A stretch of 64,000 nt of DNA from Bacteroidota bacterium (GTDB lineage: Bacteria > Bacteroidota > Bacteroidia > Chitinophagales > Chitinophagaceae): NCBI GenBank assembly GCA_016706595.1, contig JADJJH010000007.1, positions 140,856-204,855 of the forward strand. Direction: 5' to 3'. Position 1 is the first letter of the stretch. Each line of letters opens with the position of its first letter. This document shows, piece by piece, positions 7,156 through 18,629 of this stretch. The notes under the pieces are model-generated. The model was not told where the DNA came from and made no database searches. It worked only from the letters and a program-made list of their open reading frames with translations. Position numbers and translations under genes: made by a program.

Positions 7156-10112
7156 GTGGTTACACGGAAAAAAACTTAGAAGAACATATTGAGAGAAGCT
7201 TACACGAAGTAGGTTACAAATCTCTTCTTCATACTGAGTATGATAGAGTGAATTGTATTGTTCAATCTGACCTCATTGAATTCATCAAAGACACTCAGAA
7301 AGATGTATATGATAAACTGGTAGAACAATATGGTCCCGAAACAGACACCAAACTCATTTTAAGACTGACCAATGAGATTTCAGGACGTGGGGTGATAGAT
7401 TGTCTAAGAAAGGGAATAAAAGACCGTGGCTGTCATTTTTCATTAGTTTATTTTGAACCCAAAAGCGGACTGAATCCTGAACATCAGGAACTCTATCAAA
7501 AGAACCGATTCACAGCCATCAGACAACTTCATTATTCTTCAAAAAATAATAACTCATTGGACATGGCTCTTTTCATAAATGGAATATTTATTGTAACCAT
7601 GGAGTTGAAAAATCAATTGACAGGGCAAACCATTATTGATAGTGAAAAACAATACCGATATGACAGAGACCCGAATGAACCTCTCTTTCAATTCAAAAGA
7701 GTGATAGTTCATTTTTGTTGTGATAATGACAAGGTTTCAATGACGACACGATTAATGGGAGGGAAGACAAAATTTCTTCCATATAACAAAGGGATAATCA
7801 ATCCGATTAATCTTACAGGATTAAAAACATCATATCTCTGGAAGGAGATATTGACAAAAGAAAGTATGTTGGATATACTTGAAAACTTTGTTCATGTTTC
7901 CATTGAGACTGATAAAGATTTTGACCCGAAACTGGGTAAGGTTATTGAGAAGAAAAAAGAACTTTTAGTTTTCCCTCGTTATCATCAGTTAGATGTAATC
8001 AGAAAACTCAGAACATCAGTGAGAACTGAAGGCGTTGGAAATAACTATCTGATTCAACATACAACAGGGTCCGGAAAAAGTTATTCAATTGGATGGTTAT
8101 CACATTTGCTGACCTCAATTTACAGAACCAAGGATGATAACAACCGAATGTTCGACAGTATCATAGTGATTACAGACCGTAAAGTTTTAGATAGGCAATT
8201 ACAAAACACTATCAAGCAACTGGAACAAACAACCGGGGTTGTGAATCCCGTTGATGAAAACTCATCTCAGTTAAAAAAACATTTAGAAAGTGGTAAGGAT
8301 ATCATCATTACGACCATTCAAAAATTCCCCCGTATTTCTGAAACAATTTCTCAATTACAAAGTAAAACATTTGGAATTATTATTGATGAAGTTCATTCTT
8401 CTCAAAGTGGTGAAGGGGCAAAACATTTGAAACAGTCACTTTCAAAAGGTGTGGAATATGATTATGAAGAGAATGAAGAGATTAGTGATATAGATGATTT
8501 CATTAGAGAAGAAATAAGAAGTAGAGGCAAACAAAAACATATTTCCTTTTTTGGGTTCAGTGGGACACCCAAAAATAAAACTTTGGAATTATTTGGTAGA
8601 AAAGATGATGAAGGACACTTTATTCCGTTTCATACATACACAATGAAGCAAAGTATTACTGAAGGTTTTACATTGGATGTATTAGAGACTTATACGACCT
8701 ATCAACAATGGTTTAAACTGAATAAGCGAGTAGAAGAAGATAAGGAGTTACCGAAGATGAAAGTAATGAAGCGGTTGATAAATTTTGTTGACGACCAGTC
8801 TCATACTATCACTCAGAAAGTAAAAATCATTTTAGACCATTTTATAAATCACACTTCAAAGAAATTGGGCGGTAAAGGAAGAGGAATGATTGTTGTTCGG
8901 TCCCGGCTTCATTGTGTGAGGTATAAAATGGAAATGGATAAACAAATGAAAGAGTTGGGACTTCCATATAGTAGTTTGGTTGCATTCAGTGGAAGTGTAT
9001 TTGATTTTGACACCTCAAATGAATACACTGAAAATTCGATGAATAAACTCTCACAAGGAGTTTCAATTCCTGATAGTTTCAAGGACCCGAAATATAGGCT
9101 TCTGATAGTTTCAAATAAATTTCAAACTGGGTATGATGAACCTTTACTTCATTCAATGTATGTAGATAAAACTCTGAGAGGATTACAATGTGTTCAAACT
9201 CTAAGTAGGTTAAACAGAACGACCACCGGAAAGACTGACACTTTTGTTTTGGATTTTGTAAATACCAGTGATGAAATTTTTGAAAGCTTTCAACCATACT
9301 ATCAAAAAACTATTCTGACAGGAGAAACCGACCCGAATAGACTTTATACAATTGAAACCGACATAAAGAAATTCAATCTATTCACCGAATATGAGATACA
9401 AGAATTTTGTGATGTCTTTTATGATAAGAACCAAGCGCAGGAACTTCTTCAACCAATATTGAATAGAGTGGTCCATAATTGGAGTCGAATTGAAGATGAA
9501 AATGAAAGGGAAAACTTTCGTTCTCTGATTCAATCCTATCTCAGACTATACGGATATATTTCACAGATAGTAACCTTTGAAGATATTGACTTAGAAAAAC
9601 TTTATGTTTTTCTAAGATACTTAAACAAGAAATTGCCAAGGAGAGAGAAAGAGAATATTGAAGACATTACTTCCTTAGTGGATTTAGATAGTTTCAGATT
9701 GGAAGAAACATTTAAAGGAAAAATTGCACTGGAAGAAAAAGACGGGGAATTTGAACCTCTTGGAAGTGGAGTCTCAAAAGTATTTGTTGAAGATGAACTT
9801 GATTCACTTACTCAAATTATTCTTAGAATAAATGAAATTTATGGTGACCAAATAACCGATGAAGACAAACTGGATTTAGAGAATATGAAGAAGAGAGTAA
9901 TGACAAACGAAGAACTTCAAAAAGTGATGACTGGTGATAACTCAGAAACCAATAAGCGACATAAATTTGAAGAAGTGATGACTACAATTCTTTTAAGTTA
10001 TGTAAATAACAGACTGGACTTTTATAATAAAATGGATGACCCGAAAATAAAGAACTTCATTGGTGATATTCTTTACTCAGAATTAAAAAATCAAAATCAA
10101 ATAAACCCTTAA
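7152..10112 (+). CDS. hsdR: Type I restriction endonuclease subunit HsdR
   Basis: 986 aa. N-terminal PD-(D/E)XK motif (DMALFINGIFIVTMELKN), SF2 helicase motif I (QHTTGSGKS) and motif II (IIIDEVHSSQ), and later helicase motifs (FQTGYDEP). Confidence 0.92.
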   Translation: MSGYTEKNLEEHIERSLHEVGYKSLLHTEYDRVNCIVQSDLIEFIKDTQKDVYDKLVEQYGPETDTKLILRLTNEISGRGVIDCLRKGIKDRGCHFSLVYFEPKSGLNPEHQELYQKNRFTAIRQLHYSSKNNNSLDMALFINGIFIVTMELKNQLTGQTIIDSEKQYRYDRDPNEPLFQFKRVIVHFCCDNDKVSMTTRLMGGKTKFLPYNKGIINPINLTGLKTSYLWKEILTKESMLDILENFVHVSIETDKDFDPKLGKVIEKKKELLVFPRYHQLDVIRKLRTSVRTEGVGNNYLIQHTTGSGKSYSIGWLSHLLTSIYRTKDDNNRMFDSIIVITDRKVLDRQLQNTIKQLEQTTGVVNPVDENSSQLKKHLESGKDIIITTIQKFPRISETISQLQSKTFGIIIDEVHSSQSGEGAKHLKQSLSKGVEYDYEENEEISDIDDFIREEIRSRGKQKHISFFGFSGTPKNKTLELFGRKDDEGHFIPFHTYTMKQSITEGFTLDVLETYTTYQQWFKLNKRVEEDKELPKMKVMKRLINFVDDQSHTITQKVKIILDHFINHTSKKLGGKGRGMIVVRSRLHCVRYKMEMDKQMKELGLPYSSLVAFSGSVFDFDTSNEYTENSMNKLSQGVSIPDSFKDPKYRLLIVSNKFQTGYDEPLLHSMYVDKTLRGLQCVQTLSRLNRTTTGKTDTFVLDFVNTSDEIFESFQPYYQKTILTGETDPNRLYTIETDIKKFNLFTEYEIQEFCDVFYDKNQAQELLQPILNRVVHNWSRIEDENERENFRSLIQSYLRLYGYISQIVTFEDIDLEKLYVFLRYLNKKLPRREKENIEDITSLVDLDSFRLEETFKGKIALEEKDGEFEPLGSGVSKVFVEDELDSLTQIILRINEIYGDQITDEDKLDLENMKKRVMTNEELQKVMTGDNSETNKRHKFEEVMTTILLSYVNNRLDFYNKMDDPKIKNFIGDILYSELKNQNQINP

Positions 10113-10122
10113 AATAAAAATC

Positions 10123-10647
10123 ATGGCAACAGAAAATACAACATGGAAAGAAAAATCAACTTGGGATAAATCAAAAGAGATACTTGGTATAATTGGCAAT
10201 TTGGCTTTTATCACAATGTTAATATTGAATTTGATAGCTTTAAAGAATCTTATGAAATCCAATAACTACAATAATGAAGTTGTTGGGAATTGTATGACTA
10301 AATATTCAAAAATCGCTTCAAATATCAGAGCGTATAATAATCATAAGGATTCTACAATTGACATAGTGAATACTATGTATGACTATTTCGACTTGACTAA
10401 TGAAGAATTATTTTACATCAGAAACGGTGTTGTTAATCCTGAAGTTAGTGGTGATTGGATAACTGGGATGATAAAGCAAATTAAGATTTTCAAAGAGGAT
10501 AAAAATTATAACACAGTAATTGAAAATTATCCTCGAATAAAGAAAACATTTCTTATTGAATGGTCAGAAATAAAACCTGATATGATAAGCAAGCAGGTAA
10601 TTCAAAATTGTATGAGAAATCTTAATGAATATAATTTGAATCAATAA
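10123..10647 (+). CDS. Hypothetical single-pass membrane protein (174 aa)
   Basis: Starts 10 nt after the hsdR stop. One clear TM helix (ILGIIGNLAFITMLILNLIAL). No recognisable catalytic motif. Confidence 0.5.
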   Translation: MATENTTWKEKSTWDKSKEILGIIGNLAFITMLILNLIALKNLMKSNNYNNEVVGNCMTKYSKIASNIRAYNNHKDSTIDIVNTMYDYFDLTNEELFYIRNGVVNPEVSGDWITGMIKQIKIFKEDKNYNTVIENYPRIKKTFLIEWSEIKPDMISKQVIQNCMRNLNEYNLNQ

Positions 10648-10668
10648 TAAAAATTATTTTGAATATAA

Positions 10669-11271
10669 ATGGAAGTCTATCATCAGTTTCATAATACAAA
10701 CAAATTTTATCCAACTTGGGAGGTGGATTATATCTTTTTGGGAACATTCAATCCAGTTTGTGGAGAGCAGTTAGATTATTATTATAGGCGAAAGAGTAAT
10801 GGATTTTGGAATATTTTAAAGGCTTATTTTGATCCCAATAATGAGTATAATATATTAACCTATATAGAACTTGAATCTTTTGTGAAGGCTAAGAAGATAG
10901 GTTGTATTGATGTCATAAAAAAGGTGACGTTCCCAGATGATATGAGAGACAAGATATGTGGTAAAGGTTATTCCGACCAAACACTTTTCACAGTGACTAA
11001 CTTTAAAAGAGAATACACCTTTGAAGAAATTAAAGAGTTTCTTATTAAAAGAAAAGTAGAAAAGGTTTTTTCAACATGGGGTAAAAGGGATAGCCCAAGT
11101 GAGTTTTTGAATGAAGTAAATAATTTTGTTACCTTTTGTGATGAAAATTCAATTTGCTTCACCCCTCTTCCTTCACCAAGTGGGAGATGTTACCGAGGAG
11201 TAAATATTCCTATTATTACCAATGAGTGGGGCAACAGGATTACAAATGATTTTTGTAAAAAACCACTCTAA
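10669..11271 (+). CDS. UDG-superfamily DNA glycosylase-like protein (MUG/TDG- or hypoxanthine-DNA-glycosylase-like)
   Basis: 200 aa. Motif 1 with Asn reads IFLGTFNPV (compare GINPG of MUG/TDG). It is followed by YYY....NGFWNIL (compare the HP.N.FW pattern). The C-terminal motif 2 reads PLPSPSGRC (compare LPNPSGLS). Assignment is by motif pattern only. Confidence 0.55.
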   Translation: MEVYHQFHNTNKFYPTWEVDYIFLGTFNPVCGEQLDYYYRRKSNGFWNILKAYFDPNNEYNILTYIELESFVKAKKIGCIDVIKKVTFPDDMRDKICGKGYSDQTLFTVTNFKREYTFEEIKEFLIKRKVEKVFSTWGKRDSPSEFLNEVNNFVTFCDENSICFTPLPSPSGRCYRGVNIPIITNEWGNRITNDFCKKPL

Positions 11272-11316
11272 ATACATCAAAAAACCAAAATTGAAATTAT
11301 CCTAAAAATAAAGAAT

Positions 11317-11637
11317 ATGAACCCAATTGAAATTGTCCAATTTCTAAAAAACAATTCTCTAACATTTTGGAATCTACTGAGTGAAATAGATGATGAAATA
11401 GTTTCTTCAATGAGTGAAAATGATAAGGATATTATGGAAAGAATTGGCGAGGTAGAAGAAGTTGAATCATCATTGGTGAATGGAGAAATAATAGTTCATT
11501 TCAAAAATTATGACTTTTATATTAAGGAAGATGAATTTGATGACGGGAATGGAGAGGACCCTTTTTATAAATATAGTTTAGTACATCAGACAGGTGAAAA
11601 GGTAATTCCTATTTTTGGAGTACAACAGAAATTGTAA
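11317..11637 (+). CDS. Small acidic protein (106 aa), paralogue of 12961..13308
   Basis: Rich in D/E. Shares ordered blocks with the 115-aa ORF: P.E/D-I/L..F...TFW/Y; RIGEVEEVE vs KIGEYKTLEE; IIVHFKNYDFYIKE vs TIIHFETLGFYIEE; VIPIFGVQQKL vs KIVFGNHQKL. Confidence 0.5.
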   Translation: MNPIEIVQFLKNNSLTFWNLLSEIDDEIVSSMSENDKDIMERIGEVEEVESSLVNGEIIVHFKNYDFYIKEDEFDDGNGEDPFYKYSLVHQTGEKVIPIFGVQQKL

Positions 11638-11658
11638 TAATCAAACACGGCAATAAGA

Positions 11659-12390
11659 GTGAACTTGCTTAAAATTGGAACAATCAATATTGACTGGCTA
11701 AGAAGGAAAAACAAAATTCTACAGATGCTTATTGATGAAATCAACAGGCAAGAATTCGATTTTTTAATAGTTACTGAGAATGTTGCCTCATTCCAGTTCA
11801 ATGAAAAATATTTTGTATCCAACACAATCCCCATTCCTGTAGACACGGAATTTCAACATTTAGACTATGGTAGTTATTTGAAAGGTGAAACGCCAATAAG
11901 ATGCTCCATTTTTAGTAAATATGAACCAATTGAAATACTCTCTGTAATAGACTCTTATACTTGTATCGCCAGAAAGTATTTAGTTGAAAATATAGAGCTA
12001 ATTATTTACGCCTCTATTATTGGGACCTATGGCATAAGCCATCAAATGGAAATTGCCAAGCCAGAACTTTGCAATTTCAAAACTGATATTGCAAACATAT
12101 TAATTCAAAATAAAAATTTAATTATTGCAGGAGATTTAAACACATCATTTTTTACCGAGGAGAGAAAACAGTTGACACAAATTCAAAGCAGATTCGAATT
12201 AATAAATTTTACAAACAAATACCACATCAACCGAGCTACAGAAAAAATGAAAGATTGCATTGATCATATCTTTTTTTCGGAGAAATTAAATGAGGGCGCA
12301 ATCCTTAGCACAGACACATTTTTCTCGAACAATCAACTAAAAGATGAACCACATAAAGGAATTATTGTAACCATAAATAATTACATTTGA
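11659..12390 (+). CDS. Endonuclease/exonuclease/phosphatase (EEP; ExoIII/DNase I-like) family protein
   Basis: 243 aa with a GTG start in the track. EEP motifs appear in order: KIGTINIDW, DFLIVTEN (catalytic Glu), IIAGDLNTSF (GDxN) and CIDHIFFS (IDHI). Confidence 0.65.
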   Translation: MNLLKIGTINIDWLRRKNKILQMLIDEINRQEFDFLIVTENVASFQFNEKYFVSNTIPIPVDTEFQHLDYGSYLKGETPIRCSIFSKYEPIEILSVIDSYTCIARKYLVENIELIIYASIIGTYGISHQMEIAKPELCNFKTDIANILIQNKNLIIAGDLNTSFFTEERKQLTQIQSRFELINFTNKYHINRATEKMKDCIDHIFFSEKLNEGAILSTDTFFSNNQLKDEPHKGIIVTINNYI

Positions 12391-12393
12391 TGT

Positions 12394-12885
12394 ATGGAGA
12401 GGTATCAAAAAATATTAGATGAAATAATTATTTCAGTAAAAGATTTCAATTTGTATTTAAAAGAGGACAATCAAATTGAATTGCCTTTTGAAAATTTACT
12501 AAATAACCCTTACTATTATTTAGAACTTAAAAACATTCCCTTTAAAGGTTTCCAAATTCCCAGGGCTTGCGAGTATGGAGGCGTTTATTTTTATTTCGGG
12601 TTCAATAAAAATGATATTTCCGAATTACATATTTATGTCGGAAAGGCTTCTCAAAATAGTACTATGGGGAAAAGGTTATATTCACATTTCTACCAAAGAT
12701 TTTCACAAACAAATTTTGAGGGGCATAATTATTATTTTAACAATGATATTCTAATTGAAGGAATGTTATTATTACCAATTGAAAATAATGAACATAAATT
12801 TCTTGCACCGTCAATGGAAGAATTTATTATCACCGACATGAAAGAGAAAAATTATTTACTGATAAATAAAGTGGGTAATTCTTAA
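12394..12885 (+). CDS. GIY-YIG-like nuclease domain protein
   Basis: 163 aa, starting 3 nt after the EEP stop. Reads GGVYFYFG-x10-HIYVGKAS...GKRLYSH (GIY...YIG...R), with a later acidic SMEEFII and NKVGN. The pattern is consistent with a GIY-YIG core. Motif-level call only. Confidence 0.5.
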   Translation: MERYQKILDEIIISVKDFNLYLKEDNQIELPFENLLNNPYYYLELKNIPFKGFQIPRACEYGGVYFYFGFNKNDISELHIYVGKASQNSTMGKRLYSHFYQRFSQTNFEGHNYYFNNDILIEGMLLLPIENNEHKFLAPSMEEFIITDMKEKNYLLINKVGNS

Positions 12886-12960
12886 AAGAGGTCTTCGTAA
12901 AAGGGAATCAAAAACAACAATAAAGGACTTGTAAGAAAAGAGTATTCTAATTTTAAAAAA

Positions 12961-13308
12961 ATGAAAACACCACAGGATTTAATGAATTTTATGACAAAGT
13001 ATAAATATACTTTTTATGATTTTGAAAATGATATTGACTGGAAATTAGAAGAAAGCGGAGATGTTGATACTGAAGGGAATGAATTATATCATAAAATTGG
13101 AGAGTATAAGACTTTAGAAGAGTATGAATTAAATGAGGTGCATGGTTGTTCAATAAAGCATACAATAATTCATTTTGAAACATTAGGATTTTATATTGAA
13201 GAACGACTCCATATAGAAAATGAAGATGTTCAAAAAAAGGAATATTTTATAGTTGAGCCAGTACAAAAGATTGTTTTCGGAAATCATCAGAAATTGAGTG
13301 TCAATTAA
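12961..13308 (+). CDS. Small acidic protein (115 aa), paralogue of 11317..11637
   Basis: See 11317..11637: same block order, roughly 30% identity by eye. Confidence 0.5.
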   Translation: MKTPQDLMNFMTKYKYTFYDFENDIDWKLEESGDVDTEGNELYHKIGEYKTLEEYELNEVHGCSIKHTIIHFETLGFYIEERLHIENEDVQKKEYFIVEPVQKIVFGNHQKLSVN

Positions 13309-13392
13309 ATGCTTGTGTCTCAGAGTGTCTATCACAGGGTCTTTGTCAGGTTATTGAATGAAGAATTCTCCATCTATGGAAGTATCATTAAG

Positions 13393-13589
13393 TTAGAATA
13401 AGGCTCTGACTACATTCTAAAAAAACTTAAAAAATATTTTTTGATTTCATTGACTTTGAATATTTCCAAATTTGTTTTTAAAGTCTTCTGATTTATATTT
13501 GTATAACAAAAGAGATAAGAGTTCAGATGACACCGAACCACCTTATTCTAAAGAAATTAGAAAGGTCAGAGTTAAATAGGTTAGAATAA
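13393..13589. promoter_or_regulatory. Cluster of four TTAGAAT half-sites forming two palindromes plus an 11-bp inverted repeat pair
   Basis: TTAGAATAAGG at 13393-13403 and its exact reverse complement CCTTATTCTAA at 13541-13551 lie 137 bp apart. ATTCTAA at 13414-13420 pairs with the first copy. TTAGAATAA at 13581-13589 pairs with 13543-13551. Confidence 0.5.
13471..13501 (+). promoter_or_regulatory. Bacteroidota-type promoter (TTTG -33 / TAnnTTTG -7)
   Basis: TTTG at 13471-13474, a 19-nt spacer, then TATATTTG at 13494-13501. It points toward the 13767 ORF. The region is AT-rich, so a chance occurrence is possible. Confidence 0.35.
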
Positions 13590-13766
13590 AATCGCCTATT
13601 CACTATCTCAAAAAGATAGTTGTCAATTATCAATAATTATATTGTTTCAGGTTATTTCTGAAATCCATGTTTGACTTTAAATCGAATTCTGATTTTATCA
13701 GTGGTAAGAATTATGGAGCAAACTGAATATTTGATGAATTATGTAATACACTAAAAATTAAAATAT

Positions 13767-14057
13767 ATGAACGAACAATTAGAAAAATTTATTGATTTCT
13801 TGGCGAAATTATCGGATGACGAACTAAGTAAGCTTATGTATATAATTTCCCGGTCAGGGCGGTTAATAATTCCAAACTATTATTTTAAAGACCACGTAGA
13901 AGAATTTGTAGAAGATAAAATTTCTATTCAAGAAATGTGTTGGATTCAAAAAAGTATTGAAAATTATGATTACTATTTTGATAGCGACATTATACAACTA
14001 CATACAGAATATAAGCCGCAAAGAAGAGCGGATATACTCGAAGACTTAAGGTTATAG
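13767..14057 (+). CDS. Hypothetical small acidic protein (96 aa)
   Basis: ATG ORF in a co-directional series. No recognisable motif. Confidence 0.4.
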   Translation: MNEQLEKFIDFLAKLSDDELSKLMYIISRSGRLIIPNYYFKDHVEEFVEDKISIQEMCWIQKSIENYDYYFDSDIIQLHTEYKPQRRADILEDLRL

Positions 14058-14098
14058 CAGAAAGGACAAAGTATTATTAAAAAATAAAATAAATAACT

Positions 14099-14593
14099 AT
14101 GAGAAAAACACGATTGAGCCCTTTTTATCAGGGACCAGAATGGTTGAATGGAACATCTTCTATCAACCTATTAAAAAACAGGATTGGGAAATCTGTCAAT
14201 GGATTTCAAACCTTAAAAACAGGAGTCATTTCAACTAAAAGAGCAACCCGTTATAACGGAGTTTCTTTGAAACTACAAGTAGTGAATGACCTTGTTTATT
14301 TGAAGGTTGGGAAATCACTTTCAGATCCATACTGGAAGATTGATAACATTGTTAAGATGTTATCATTCAAGAACGCTTCAAAGACGATTCTTAAACAGGA
14401 TGTTAGAAAGTGGATTGAGGATGGAAAACTGGTTGTCAGTTTTAATGTTCTCAAAAAAGACCACGGAACGAAGTGGAAATTAATTGACAAGGACACTTTA
14501 TTCAAATCCGCAGAACTCAAACCAAGGGTTAAGTGGGAAAGAACCAAAAAGGAGGTTCTTTTGGATGAGGACGATTTCTTTAGTGACCTGTAA
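14099..14593 (+). CDS. Hypothetical basic protein (164 aa)
   Basis: ATG ORF, K/R-rich, followed by a strong terminator hairpin. Confidence 0.45.
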   Translation: MRKTRLSPFYQGPEWLNGTSSINLLKNRIGKSVNGFQTLKTGVISTKRATRYNGVSLKLQVVNDLVYLKVGKSLSDPYWKIDNIVKMLSFKNASKTILKQDVRKWIEDGKLVVSFNVLKKDHGTKWKLIDKDTLFKSAELKPRVKWERTKKEVLLDEDDFFSDL

Positions 14594-14602
14594 TCAGGCA
14601 TT

Positions 14603-14636
14603 ATTAGCCTCTGAATTTATCAGGGGCTAATTTTTC
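14603..14636 (+). terminator. Rho-independent terminator
   Basis: 12-bp stem (ATTAGCCTCTGA / TCAGGGGCTAAT, one G:U pair), 5-nt loop, then TTTTT. Confidence 0.6.
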
Positions 14637-14740
14637 TTAAAAAGTGTATCATTTCAAAAATGTATCAAAATAATTAGGAAAACATTAGGTTGATACACGA
14701 TTTAATGTATCTTTGTAATGTAAAAGATTAAAACGATACA

Positions 14741-14995
14741 ATGAAAGACTATTTAAGACGATTATTAGATGAAAAGGGAATATCACAGGATTATGTATTC
14801 ACACTTGATACGAATGATTACTGGGGGCATCATATCATTCCCATAGAAGTTCTGATCGAGTTTATAGATAATATGAACCCACAAACTCAGACACAGATAA
14901 AACAGAAATTAGTGGTCATTGATTTTAAGAATGGTGATATTCTTCACTTTTTAGAATTCATCACCCGTAAAATGATAGAAGTTCAAGTCAATTAA
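14741..14995 (+). CDS. Hypothetical protein (84 aa)
   Basis: ATG ORF ending 10 nt before the recombinase start. No recognisable motif. Confidence 0.4.
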   Translation: MKDYLRRLLDEKGISQDYVFTLDTNDYWGHHIIPIEVLIEFIDNMNPQTQTQIKQKLVVIDFKNGDILHFLEFITRKMIEVQVN

Positions 14996-15005
14996 AATAC
15001 ACATT

Positions 15006-15631
15006 ATGAAAGTTGTAATTTTTCCCGCGTGTCCACTATGTCGCAAGACTATCAAAGACAAACAGTAGAATTAAAAGAATATTCTCAGAAGATGGGTTTT
15101 GAAGTTGTCAAAACCTTTGAAGAAAAGATTTCAGGCGGTAAGAACAATGAAGACCGACCAAAATTGATGGAAATGATAAATTTCATCAAGTCAAATCAGA
15201 TTGACAAAGTTCTATGTTGGGAATTAAGCAGAATTGGAAGGAATACTATTGAGGTTCTGAAAACAATCAAGCTTCTGAATGATAATTGTATATCACTATT
15301 CATCAAGAACTACAACATAGAGACCTTGAATGATAAATGTGAGATAAACCCCTTATCTCAGTTTATGATTCAAATTTTGACCTCTGTAAGTGAGATGGAG
15401 AAGACAACTATCAGACAGAGGGTAAAGTCGGGTTATGATAATTTCAGAAAGAACGGTGGCAAGGTTGGAAGAAAAGAAGGATTCAGAAAAGACGATGAAA
15501 CTATACTTAATGAAAACAAGGATGTTTCAAAACTTCTAAAACAAGGCTACTCAGTAAGAAAGGTTATGAAATTGACCGATAAAAGTAGTGGGACCATTCA
15601 GAAAGTAAAGAAATTAATCAATGACAAATAA
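15006..15631 (+). CDS. Small serine recombinase (resolvase/invertase family); first 7 codons are out of frame
   Basis: Contains RVSTMSQDYQRQ (catalytic Ser motif), ISGG...DRPKL, ELSRIGRN, and a C-terminal HTH (GYSVRKVMKLTDKSSGTIQKVKK). ATG at 15006 encodes MKVVIF in another frame. One extra T in the T5 run 15019-15023 would give MKVVIFSRVSTMSQ. The track ORF is 15029..15631 (GTG). Confidence 0.8.
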
Positions 15632-16021
15632 GAAAATGACAATTACTATTCAACATCAAGCAGAAAAGACCTTTCACACTTTCAAAGTAAAAGATTCGGA
15701 TAACCTTACTTACTTAGAGGTAAGAACTATCTGTAATAAAATGAATTTCATTGGGCTTCTCGTGAATGGGAAATATTATAAATTTAAATAAGCTGAATTA
15801 TGGACTTAAAAACGAAATACGATACTAAGAGCAAGGAGATTGAACAAAAACTCTCAAAAATGAAAGTAATAAACAAGAAGCACAAACAACACTTTGAGAA
15901 GAACTCCACTAACTGGTGATCCTTGATGGAAGTTCATTCAAATTAATACTTTTTTGATTTGCCATCAAAAACCAAAGTTGAATAAAATAATATTATTACC
16001 TTCATAATAAAATCTAACCCC

Positions 16022-16474
16022 ATGAAACAATTATTGACATTGATCTTTATATTTACTTTAATCTCAGTTATATTTATAAAATGCAAAAAGAATGAATCTG
16101 GGAATAAGAGTTATTCAAACCTTACTGGAACTTATCAAGGCAGTTTGATTTGGTCTAAAGGATTATTACAAGGAACTGACAACAATGCAAAAGTTACAAT
16201 TTCTTCAGGAATCAATGGTAGTATAAATGTCAATATATCTACTTCAGCTTCAGTTCCTAAAAGTTATGATATACCTCTTATGCTAAAAATTGAAAATTCT
16301 GGAAGTAGAGTCCGGTCGTATGGTTATGAATACAATAATTCAACTTTTACCAAAGGAATTGGTGCTACAATAAATATTTACAATGATGGTAATCCCTCAG
16401 ACCTTGAAATAAATTATGAGGACATTGATATTAATCCAATTGTACAGTATAATTTTTCCGGAAGTATTAAATGA
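16022..16474 (+). CDS. Putative lipoprotein (150 aa)
   Basis: Signal peptide with a Cys after the hydrophobic core (LISVIFIKC). S/N/G-rich mature part. Confidence 0.5.
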   Translation: MKQLLTLIFIFTLISVIFIKCKKNESGNKSYSNLTGTYQGSLIWSKGLLQGTDNNAKVTISSGINGSINVNISTSASVPKSYDIPLMLKIENSGSRVRSYGYEYNNSTFTKGIGATINIYNDGNPSDLEINYEDIDINPIVQYNFSGSIK

Positions 16475-16526
16475 AGAACAATATGAAGAAATTCTAAAAT
16501 ATTTGTGTACGTTAAAGTAACTTCCG

Positions 16527-16583
16527 GACCTAATCTATTTAGAAGACAAACTGGATGAAATGATAAATTTCACGGGGATGTAA
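16527..16583 (+). repeat. Gene 3'-end remnant, copy 1 (DLIYLEDKLDEMINFTGM*)
   Basis: 57 nt, homologous to 18412-18468. An in-frame stop lies just upstream (16518-16520), so no intact gene is attached. Confidence 0.7.
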
Positions 16584-17009
16584 TTAAGTAAGAATTCGTT
16601 TCATAAATACAGAAACATCACCATAAACCCCATTTATAATTGAAAAAATTGAATGACTTACGTCAAACTCCTTTCCCAATTTACTTGTCCAAATACCATT
16701 TAATAATTGCCTAGCAGCGTGAGTAGGAGCCCCATTTTTTGAAAAAATTGCAATTTTTTCATATCCTTCTTCTAGTTCTCCATTTTCACATACTTCATAA
16801 TTTATAGTACTAAAAAGCTGAATAAAATTTTCAACTTTTTCAGATCTCGGAATATGTTCCGGCCAATAGTACGAATTACTGCTATCAGGCCAAAACCATT
16901 TTGAGTCGTCACCATAAGCCCATGCAATACAATTATAGAACGGAGTAGGCGGACTTGTAATAATGAATGGTTCTTTTGCAGAGTTGGGGAAAATATTATG
17001 AAAATGCAT
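16584..17009 (-). CDS. Hypothetical protein with papain-like Cys/His signature (141 aa)
   Basis: FYNCIAWAY (Cys in an N-C-x-x-W context, as in CHAP/NlpC-type folds) and a later GAPTHAARQLLNGIWTSKLG (His). Last gene of a tightly packed three-gene unit. Confidence 0.45.
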   Translation of the reverse strand: MHFHNIFPNSAKEPFIITSPPTPFYNCIAWAYGDDSKWFWPDSSNSYYWPEHIPRSEKVENFIQLFSTINYEVCENGELEEGYEKIAIFSKNGAPTHAARQLLNGIWTSKLGKEFDVSHSIFSIINGVYGDVSVFMKRILT

Positions 17010-17015
17010 TCTTCA

Positions 17016-17444
17016 TTATTTCAGATTATCATTTGCCCATTCAAGCCAATCAGCTTTCATTAATTTGAAATCTCCTCGATGGTCAGGCTTAATGGGATTC
17101 TTACCAGTAAGCGCTTCAAGGGCATAAAACCAGTGTGAATCAGATTTTTCTAAATCCTGAAGAATAAATGGCAACACATCTTGACCTAAATGGACAATTG
17201 AACGGTAAGCACCATTATTTGTTATTTCTGAAACACTAGATGAGAACATAGTTTCAGATTGCCAAATGCTTTTGTATATTTCAAATTTCTTCTTCACTTG
17301 GTATTTGAACATTTCCTTTATAAAAATACTTTGACCGATAAAGGAATGCCGACTTTCTTCATTGTTTCTTTGTACAAAAATTGCTTCAGTTGAAACAGCA
17401 TTTGTTCTTAAATTTTCTTGAACTCTTGGGAATAAGTAATTCAT
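17016..17444 (-). CDS. Hypothetical protein (~142 aa)
   Basis: The likely start is the ATG at 17444, which overlaps the upstream stop (ATGA). Ends 6 nt before the next ATG. No recognisable motif. Confidence 0.45.
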   Translation of the reverse strand: MNYLFPRVQENLRTNAVSTEAIFVQRNNEESRHSFIGQSIFIKEMFKYQVKKKFEIYKSIWQSETMFSSSVSEITNNGAYRSIVHLGQDVLPFILQDLEKSDSHWFYALEALTGKNPIKPDHRGDFKLMKADWLEWANDNLK

Positions 17445-18172
17445 TTTAAAAATAAATCTTTTGTTTTTTGAGTGATACAACTTTCGAAAATTTTATCTTT
17501 TGTAGTTCTAATTTCATTAAAATTAGAAGTTATTTCATCAATTGTAGAACCAATGTTGGTGTTTTGTGATACATCAATATCAAGAATGAATGGAATTTTC
17601 GAATCTTGAATCGGTTCAATTGCTTCAGAAATTACCGCATTCTGTCCATTCTCATCACATGGGACTTGAATTTGCATAAAGAATGTAGAATAAATTTGAG
17701 GGAGACAAGATGGAATCGGGGGCATAATAGTTATATAATCTTGGAAACTAGTTAAAGTGATTGGAAGTTCAATTCTATTAATAAAACGTGCCGCAATCCT
17801 GTTAGCCGTTGAAGGAGCAAATAAGTCCTTATAATGAGACCACAATTTCATAAAAAATGTAAAATGTTCTTCCCAACTGTTATAAGGTTTTAAAATATTT
17901 AATGTTAGCCCTTCAAATCCAACTTGAATTTGTCTAGAGGCATCATCACTCGAATAGATATGTCCCAAGACATCACTTGTCCCTTTACTTGCGACTTCTT
18001 TGTCGGGTTGAAATTCAAACAGCCCAGTAAATCTATGTTGTGTTTTCTGATTAGGAAACTCCCCAATTATCAACTCTTTAAACGCATTCAATTCTTCTAT
18101 CTGAGTAACAGCTAACGGCTCAACTCTGATATCGAATACTGCTTCGCGAATGGGATTGTTCGTGTAGTTCAT
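17441..18172 (-). CDS. TIGR04255-like uncharacterised protein (~243 aa)
   Basis: The N-terminus MNYTNNPIREAVFDIRVEP matches, from memory, the characteristic start of the TIGR04255 family. The track start at 18190 is TTG; the ATG at 18172 is preferred. Confidence 0.45.
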   Translation of the reverse strand: MNYTNNPIREAVFDIRVEPLAVTQIEELNAFKELIIGEFPNQKTQHRFTGLFEFQPDKEVASKGTSDVLGHIYSSDDASRQIQVGFEGLTLNILKPYNSWEEHFTFFMKLWSHYKDLFAPSTANRIAARFINRIELPITLTSFQDYITIMPPIPSCLPQIYSTFFMQIQVPCDENGQNAVISEAIEPIQDSKIPFILDIDVSQNTNIGSTIDEITSNFNEIRTTKDKIFESCITQKTKDLFLK

Positions 18173-18411
18173 TATTTTTAAAAAGGGCAAGAAAAGTATA
18201 ACCTTATTATGTTGTCCTTGGACAAATCTACATAAAGTTTTTAATCTTCATAATTTCAATGGATTGAAAAGGTTTTATTTCACATTCAATCCTTCAGTAA
18301 AGGCAATATTTAAAAGAATTTAAAATCACCTTTATATATGATAGAATAGAAATAATTTCAAAAAACATACAGTACTTAGATAGAACTCTATTTATTATCG
18401 GTTATCTAGTA

Positions 18412-18468
18412 GATTTCATCAACTTGGAAAACAAACTGGACGAAATGATAAATTTTACCGGGATGTAG
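18412..18468 (+). repeat. Gene 3'-end remnant, copy 2 (DFINLENKLDEMINFTGM*)
   Basis: Over the last 42 nt there are 5 mismatches to copy 1. Three are silent third-position changes, one swaps the stop codon (TAA/TAG) and one causes the D/N replacement. Open upstream only to 18301, with no ATG. Confidence 0.7.
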
Positions 18469-18556
18469 TAAAATGTTTCACACATTTGTTTTACACCCTA
18501 CAAAGAAAAAGACTCGCAATTCATTGATAATCAATGTTTTGCGAGTCTTTTATCTG

Positions 18557-18629
18557 TGGTGTGGGAGGGAATTGAACCCCCGACACAAGGATTTTCAGTC
18601 CTTTGCTCTACCAACTGAGCTACCGCACC
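18557..18629 (-). tRNA. tRNA-Phe (anticodon GAA)
   Basis: The reverse complement folds as a cloverleaf: GGTGCGG-TA-GCTC-AGTTGGTA-GAGC-A-AAGGA-CTGAAAA-TCCTT-GTGTC-GGGGG-TTCAATT-CCCTC-CCACACC-A. 73 nt, CCA not encoded. One C5:A68 mismatch in the acceptor stem. Confidence 0.85.

Follow-up and report, generated by a model that had tools for sequence, protein, structure and literature searches.

In this work, we describe a very rare and unnamed family of small acidic proteins, two copies of which (the open reading frames ORF1 and ORF2) are encoded within a 64,000-nucleotide (nt) stretch of contig JADJJH010000007.1 from a Bacteroidota bacterium of the Chitinophagaceae, hereafter the window. We refer to the protein as X and to the two copies in the window as X1 (ORF1) and X2 (ORF2). 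The surroundings in which X is found elsewhere indicate that, very probably, its gene is accessory to a single clade of type I restriction–modification (R-M) systems and is not a partner of the glycosylase-like, endonuclease/exonuclease/phosphatase-like (EEP-like) or 163-amino-acid (aa) genes among which the two copies lie in the window (table 1).

X Recurs at the hsdS–hsdR Junction

In five independent lineages (P0004, P0008, P0007, P0011 and P0016), X was found at the junction between hsdS and hsdR. P0004, which is 61% identical to ORF2, lies on an 8.6-kilobase (kb) contig with the order hsdM-hsdS-P0004-hsdR. The same arrangement, hsdM-hsdS-X-hsdR, surrounds P0008 (locus L015); P0007 (L016/L017) and P0011 (L020/L021) are found as hsdS-X-hsdR, and P0016 (L026) lies directly upstream of hsdR. 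Packing is tight, and three of these lineages have 4-nt ATGA overlaps, which join X to hsdR in L015 and L016 and hsdS to X in L020. Such a recurrent placement within a type I R-M operon, across independent lineages, is what marks X as an accessory gene of these systems.

Every HsdR adjoining a family member is 69–86% identical in aa sequence to the HsdR of the window, and the conserved HsdS C-terminus of the family-bearing loci also matches that of the window. The family thus belongs to one narrow type I R-M clade that is present in the window as well. In the loci where X occupies this slot, it is flanked by hsd genes only, with no conserved second gene alongside.

Enzyme-Like Neighbors Are Not Conserved Companions

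An earlier note on this DNA had proposed a different association, in which each of the two acidic proteins follows a DNA-acting enzyme and serves as its cognate antitoxin-like or DNA-mimic inhibitor, X1 for the glycosylase-like enzyme and X2 for the EEP-like protein together with a presumed GIY-YIG nuclease. The arrangement in the window lends itself to such a view, as the two copies are matched in number by two enzyme modules, all co-directional and closely spaced, and both X1 and X2 are acidic and non-catalytic. The enzyme assignments are themselves weak, however: the EEP-like match stands close to its cutoff, the glycosylase match is poor, and the 163-aa protein gave no match against Pfam, NCBIfam or the PDB, so that the statement that each copy follows a DNA-acting enzyme is only partly supported. 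Moreover, in the homologue-bearing loci found elsewhere no ORF resembles the glycosylase-like, EEP-like or 163-aa proteins, and the survey of homologues for a recurrent pairing with nucleases or glycosylases thus went against the proposal.

The closest relative of the window locus is L007, whose HsdR is 98.6% identical to that of the window. Its gene order is hsdR, a 174-aa gene and an ORF1 homologue, with 60 nt between the last two, so that both loci carry the ORF1 lineage downstream of hsdR. Positions 10659..11287 of the window, which contain the glycosylase-like gene, correspond to 19 nt in L007, as defined by BLASTN breakpoints. The glycosylase-like gene is therefore an insertion absent from L007, where the X1 homologue is kept, and not a conserved partner of ORF1. 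Compared with L007, this insertion is clean and cassette-like. A second segment of about 6.8 kb (11647..18471), carrying the EEP-like gene, the 163-aa gene, ORF2, small ORFs, a serine recombinase and a minus-strand cassette, is replaced in L007 (2407..2789) by about 380 base pairs with a 92-aa ORF. Similarity between the two loci returns at 18472..18558, just left of a tRNA-Phe gene (18556..18629, minus strand). Along the shared part (7152..11637), synonymous divergence is 0.17 in hsdR and 0.5–0.6 in the 174-aa gene and ORF1, a jump that points to recombination with a breakpoint close to the 3' end of hsdR. Since the 174-aa gene stands directly before the ORF1 homologue in L007, its product may be a partner of the ORF1 lineage.

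The EEP-like gene can also be followed outside the window. Genome G071 contains two homologues of it (43–44% identity), and neither has a family member or a 163-aa homologue beside it. One of them comes after an HsdR-like helicase, and it may be that restriction systems repeatedly carry the EEP-like gene in their tails. In L060 (G071:C9), genes for a 1070-aa HsdR-like helicase and a 239-aa protein stand just upstream of the 44%-identical EEP homologue (5014..5760, minus strand).

Judged by these gene neighborhoods, no dedicated partnership exists between the family and the glycosylase-like, EEP-like or GIY-like genes, and cognate inhibition of these neighbors is the least probable of the explanations that we considered. 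What remains of the proposed link to DNA enzymes is a strong association with a nuclease, but this nuclease is the type I HsdR and not the enzymes next to which X1 and X2 happen to lie.

A Rare Family of Acidic Paralogues

Both reading frames are present exactly as the earlier note had placed them, and the sequence blocks that it had reported as shared proved to be real. A pairwise BLASTP comparison of ORF1 and ORF2 gave E = 2e-6, with 28% identity over 79 aligned aa. The multiple alignment of the family extends the match to full length, including the blocks hIhHF..h.FYIxE and, at the C-terminus, FG..QKL. As an independent test, we built a hidden Markov model (HMM) from five relatives from outside the window and searched it against the 11,183 six-frame ORFs of at least 60 aa from the whole genome; it recovered ORF2 (E = 1e-39), ORF1 (E = 3e-9) and no other ORF. 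Neither this model nor the sequence searches revealed further paralogues in the genome. On this evidence, ORF1 and ORF2 are true, although distant, paralogues of a very rare family.

Among roughly 15 billion proteins, the known family amounts to about 16 sequences, almost all of them from metagenomes. In 5.8 billion clusters, word-indexed searches found a single close relative for ORF1 (P0002, 89%) and three for ORF2 (61–65%). The exhaustive HMMER profile search of 1.84 billion representatives yielded only 10 proteins at E <= 1e-3, and a wider profile search added only two further members. The members are stand-alone proteins of 94–117 aa, with no fusions, and are called "hypothetical protein" in every source that names them. 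Searches of about 800 genomes belonging to the same family or phylum, and pattern scans across 185,579 species genomes, gave no homologue outside the source genome. A weak profile match in G140 was rejected, as it belongs to an unrelated array of tandem membrane proteins. The array (L014, G140:C80) contains four or more membrane-protein paralogues, each about 250 aa long and beginning with MEVHxHxHTxRKKWTHY.

The strong acidity noted earlier for both proteins was confirmed: among the 90–130-aa ORFs of the genome, ORF1 ranks in the top 0.3% and ORF2 in the top 1.4%. A net charge of -5 to -16 is found in all 14 family members, at about 30% identity. The ratio of nonsynonymous to synonymous divergence (dN/dS) is 0.12 between ORF1 and its L007 orthologue and 0.20 between ORF2 and its counterpart in L011, indicating that both are genuine coding genes under purifying selection. 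Although selection on X is purifying, its dN is 2.5–12 times that of HsdR, and in loci whose HsdR proteins are 73–87% identical the X proteins share only 27–44% identity. Congruence between the divergence of X and that of HsdR is weak and derives from short fragments. Such fast evolution fits a constraint acting mainly on fold and charge, or an engagement with a variable partner. The invariant positions of the alignment are F, G, F and E, and the near-invariant ones are mostly hydrophobic; with conserved residues that are mostly hydrophobic plus one glycine and one glutamate, no catalytic motif can be recognized.

These patterns bear on the simplest alternative, namely that X is a hitch-hiker with no role in R-M or defense, kept only through co-transcription. 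The extreme rarity of the family would be consistent with such a passenger, as would its being dispensable for the R-M clade (see system G059 below). However, the low dN/dS values, the retention of fold and charge at 30% identity and the recurrence of the gene at the same junction in five lineages make this alternative improbable.

Predicted Fold and Comparison with DNA Mimics

The AlphaFold2 models of ORF1 (predicted local distance difference test, pLDDT, 77; predicted template modeling score, pTM, 0.64) and ORF2 (pLDDT 82.6, pTM 0.74) are confident and of the alpha+beta type. They have a common topology, in which four short helices at the N-terminus lead into an antiparallel sheet of five strands. 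No match to ORF1, ORF2 or any of the 14 members was found in Pfam, NCBIfam, PHROGs or PADLOC, and a profile search of the PDB also gave no match for the family. In Foldseek comparisons, neither model had a PDB hit at E <= 0.001 or any significant hit in BFVD, where the best viral match was a 107-aa siphovirus protein at a non-significant E = 0.16. NTF2-like and cystatin-like proteins recurred among the insignificant hits (E 0.5–4, template modeling score, TM, 0.2–0.4). The alpha+beta cone of these proteins resembles X in topology, with N-terminal helices and then a curved antiparallel sheet, but as all such hits have E > 0.5 and TM < 0.4, the resemblance is a lead only and does not establish membership.

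Small acidic proteins linked to type I R-M enzymes recall ArdA of Tn916 and Ocr of T7, which like X are non-enzymatic, and the earlier note had offered as its second explanation an anti-restriction protein of a mobile element, shielding incoming DNA from the type I enzymes of the recipient. The size and charge of X, its place on an accessory island that also carries a serine recombinase and an insertion sequence (IS) element, and its link to type I restriction are in agreement with this idea. On the other hand, ArdA and Ocr are encoded by the invading element, while the gene for X belongs to the R-M operon itself, where it is coupled to hsdR, and searches of phage GenBank (50,697 records), IMG/VR and the plasmid collection PLSDB (72,556 plasmids), where an ArdA-, Ocr- or Ugi-like protein of a phage, plasmid or conjugative element would be sought, returned no homologue. 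Nor is there any similarity at the level of families or folds. Neither ArdA (PF07275) nor Ocr (PF08684) was listed when the 14 members were compared with Pfam by hmmscan at E <= 1, and no structure of ArdA, Ocr or Ugi was among the top 50 Foldseek PDB hits of either model. The predicted fold of X, helices plus a five-stranded sheet without similarity to solved folds, is thus unrelated to all three proteins invoked as models. An anti-restriction protein of this type is, in our view, highly improbable. The broader suggestion, that X is an acidic, non-catalytic binder or a DNA-mimic-like inhibitor, is possible.

The Host Locus in the Window

The hsdM gene of the window is interrupted by a decayed IS110 element, whose transposase is itself broken into ORFs of 142 and 129 aa on the minus strand. 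The intact HsdM proteins of L015 and of G059 each align to both pieces. Type I enzymes require HsdM for methylation as well as for restriction, and with hsdM split the R-M system of the window is probably inactive. The other type I systems of the genome are distant from it (23–28% identity).

Because hsdS directly overlaps hsdR, the window has no gene in the slot that X occupies in other loci. The two family copies sit instead downstream of hsdR, in the variable tail of the same operon. From hsdS to ORF2, the final gene of the block, all genes are co-directional with gaps of 4–76 nt, and the end of this block is marked by the promoter consensus listed in table 1. Given the shared orientation, the short gaps and a sole full promoter consensus placed after ORF2, ORF1 and ORF2 look like tail genes of an extended hsd operon, with which they would be co-transcribed. 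No obvious cassette boundary repeats were seen around ORF1 and ORF2 when the junctions were inspected.

Table 1. Features of the window around the two acidic genes.
Feature	Position	Strand	Evidence and remarks
hsdM, in two pieces	1847..4891 (1847..3040 and about 4334..4891)	+	Pfam
Decayed IS110 element, transposase fragments	3090..3913	minus	Pfam
hsdS, specificity subunit	5785..7155	+	Pfam Methylase_S
hsdR	7152..10112	+	Pfam HSDR_N, SWI2_SNF2, ResIII, T1R_D3-like
174-aa protein with hydrophobic segment	10123..10647	+	Next gene after hsdR; 76% aa identity to the L007 counterpart
200-aa glycosylase-like gene	10669..11271	+	TIGR04274 (deoxyinosine glycosylase model), weak, E = 9e-4
ORF1 (X1)	11317..11637	+	106 aa, isoelectric point (pI) 4.2, net charge -15; acidic family member
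243-aa EEP-like gene	11659..12390	+	Pfam Exo_endo_phos PF03372, E = 5e-5, just below gathering cutoff
163-aa gene ("GIY-YIG" of the earlier note)	12394..12885	+	No family match
ORF2 (X2)	12961..13308	+	115 aa, pI 4.8, net charge -12; acidic paralogue
Only full Bacteroidota-type promoter consensus in the window	13471..13501	+	Promoter scan; just after ORF2

Beyond the promoter consensus, an 84-aa ORF (14741..14995) matching the phage family phrog_6004 (E = 5e-17) lies directly upstream of a serine recombinase/invertase gene (15029..15631; Resolvase match, E = 8e-30). A serine recombinase is likewise found downstream of the homologous R-M operon of G059.

The Slot as a Hotspot for Cargo

The junction between hsdS and hsdR is variable also outside the clade that carries X. 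Genomes of the same taxonomic family with an HsdR at 40–54% identity have, at several loci, about 1–1.3 kb between the two genes. The contents include Abi_2 (L042/L043), RhuM plus Fic (L048) and an unannotated acidic protein (L040/L041) of 332–384 aa, with net charges of -17 and -27 and no Pfam match (L040, 479..1477; L041, 2390..3544, minus strand). In G059, the closest system found in a genome (67–69%), the slot is empty.

A known occupant of such a slot is PrrC, an anticodon nuclease that measures about 400 aa and includes an ATPase domain. At about 110 aa, X has no catalytic motif and no sequence or fold similarity to PrrC. The two have position in common, since PrrC lies in the same slot at the EcoprrI locus (hsdM-hsdS-prrC-hsdR; PMC12707154), and X would likewise be co-expressed with the restriction subunits. 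Of the features that define PrrC and RloC, X thus shares the location between hsdS and hsdR, in five lineages, and lacks the ABC-ATPase N-domain and nuclease C-domain, its 94–117-aa members having no domain match. TgvAB of the Vibrio cholerae island VPI-2 (PMC11411939) and the Abi_2 and Fic/RhuM cargo resemble X in being facultative genes of a hotspot that vary between related operons, but they have recognizable effector domains, whereas X has none and keeps to one HsdR clade. The view of the slot as a hotspot agrees with the literature on PrrC (reviewed in PMC12707154) and on TgvAB and other embedded defenses (PMC11411939). In the literature on small genes between hsdS and hsdR we found no precedent for the X family. 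The family is new and unannotated, while its position is of an already known kind, accessory genes having been seen inside type I R-M operons before.

Possible Functions of X

Taken as an accessory protein of this R-M clade, X has about an even chance of being a non-catalytic one that acts by binding, most plausibly on the enzyme with which it would be co-expressed. A more specific reading, which we put forward tentatively, is that this acidic and possibly DNA-mimic-like binder acts as a brake on HsdR or on the M2S core. A brake is favored by the coupling of X directly upstream of hsdR, which recalls the order of antitoxin before toxin, by its restriction to one HsdR clade, by the lack of any non-hsd partner and by the maintenance of negative charge. 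X does not otherwise qualify as a type II antitoxin, as there is no conserved non-hsd partner across loci and no match to an antitoxin family. According to this reading, X would be co-expressed with the R-M enzyme and bind HsdR or the M2S core, its conserved negative charge could occupy a DNA-binding surface of either, and restriction would thereby be tempered, for instance after DNA damage or during the period in which an incoming operon is still setting up methylation. In its fullest form, the proposal would have X as an operon-encoded, translationally coupled brake, DNA-mimic-like in nature and made just before HsdR, that keeps HsdR, or the DNA groove of M2S, inactive for as long as the genome lacks methylation, or during DNA damage. 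Stated in such detail it is unlikely, and the two diverged copies of the window would then be leftovers, or brakes re-targeted to the DNA enzymes of the operon tail.

Several observations weigh against an accessory protein acting on the R-M enzyme, and against a brake in particular. The G059 system does without a family gene in its slot. As the slot is a general hotspot for facultative cargo, position alone is no proof that X acts on the enzyme. Two copies that are 28% identical beside the single R-M system of the clade are odd for a simple brake. The acidity of X is moderate relative to that of Ocr or ArdA. Finally, four lineages (P0005, P0009, P0010 and P0012) are known from contigs of at most 1.2 kb with no hsd gene in view, and these neither support nor refute the link to R-M.

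The main rival to the brake is that X is a stand-alone defense or guard cargo, one of many accessory genes that are interchangeable in the hotspot and in the operon tail, and independent of R-M catalysis; it could act towards a phage protein as a sensor or a decoy, or form half of a module with partners that change from locus to locus. Here the Abi_2, RhuM plus Fic and unknown acidic proteins of related slots, together with the published cases of PrrC (PMC12707154) and TgvAB (PMC11411939), provide precedents. The fast evolution of X relative to its neighbors points in the same direction, as does the persistence of purifying selection outside the slot, and two diverged copies in one operon would suit different specificities. 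Nevertheless, X has neither an effector domain nor a catalytic motif, no match in PADLOC and no conserved second gene, its flanks in the slot being hsd genes only. It is also confined to one HsdR clade instead of traveling among systems. Independent cargo is a rather unlikely explanation.

Implications

For genome annotation, the analysis corrects an attractive but unsupported reading of enzyme plus inhibitor. The rarity of the family, with about 16 sequences, nearly all metagenomic, tempers its value. X nevertheless adds a new, unannotated gene to those that occupy a slot in which defense genes are known to hide. How a type I R-M system enters a naive cell without killing it is understood for a few Escherichia coli families, through proteolysis by ClpXP or, in type IC, through tuned assembly (PMC12707154). 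A small acidic protein encoded between hsdS and hsdR would be a compact candidate for a built-in controller or guard of such a system. If true, an operon-encoded brake would parallel, at the level of protein and from within the R-M operon itself, the timing exerted by C-proteins and the restriction alleviation exerted by ClpXP.

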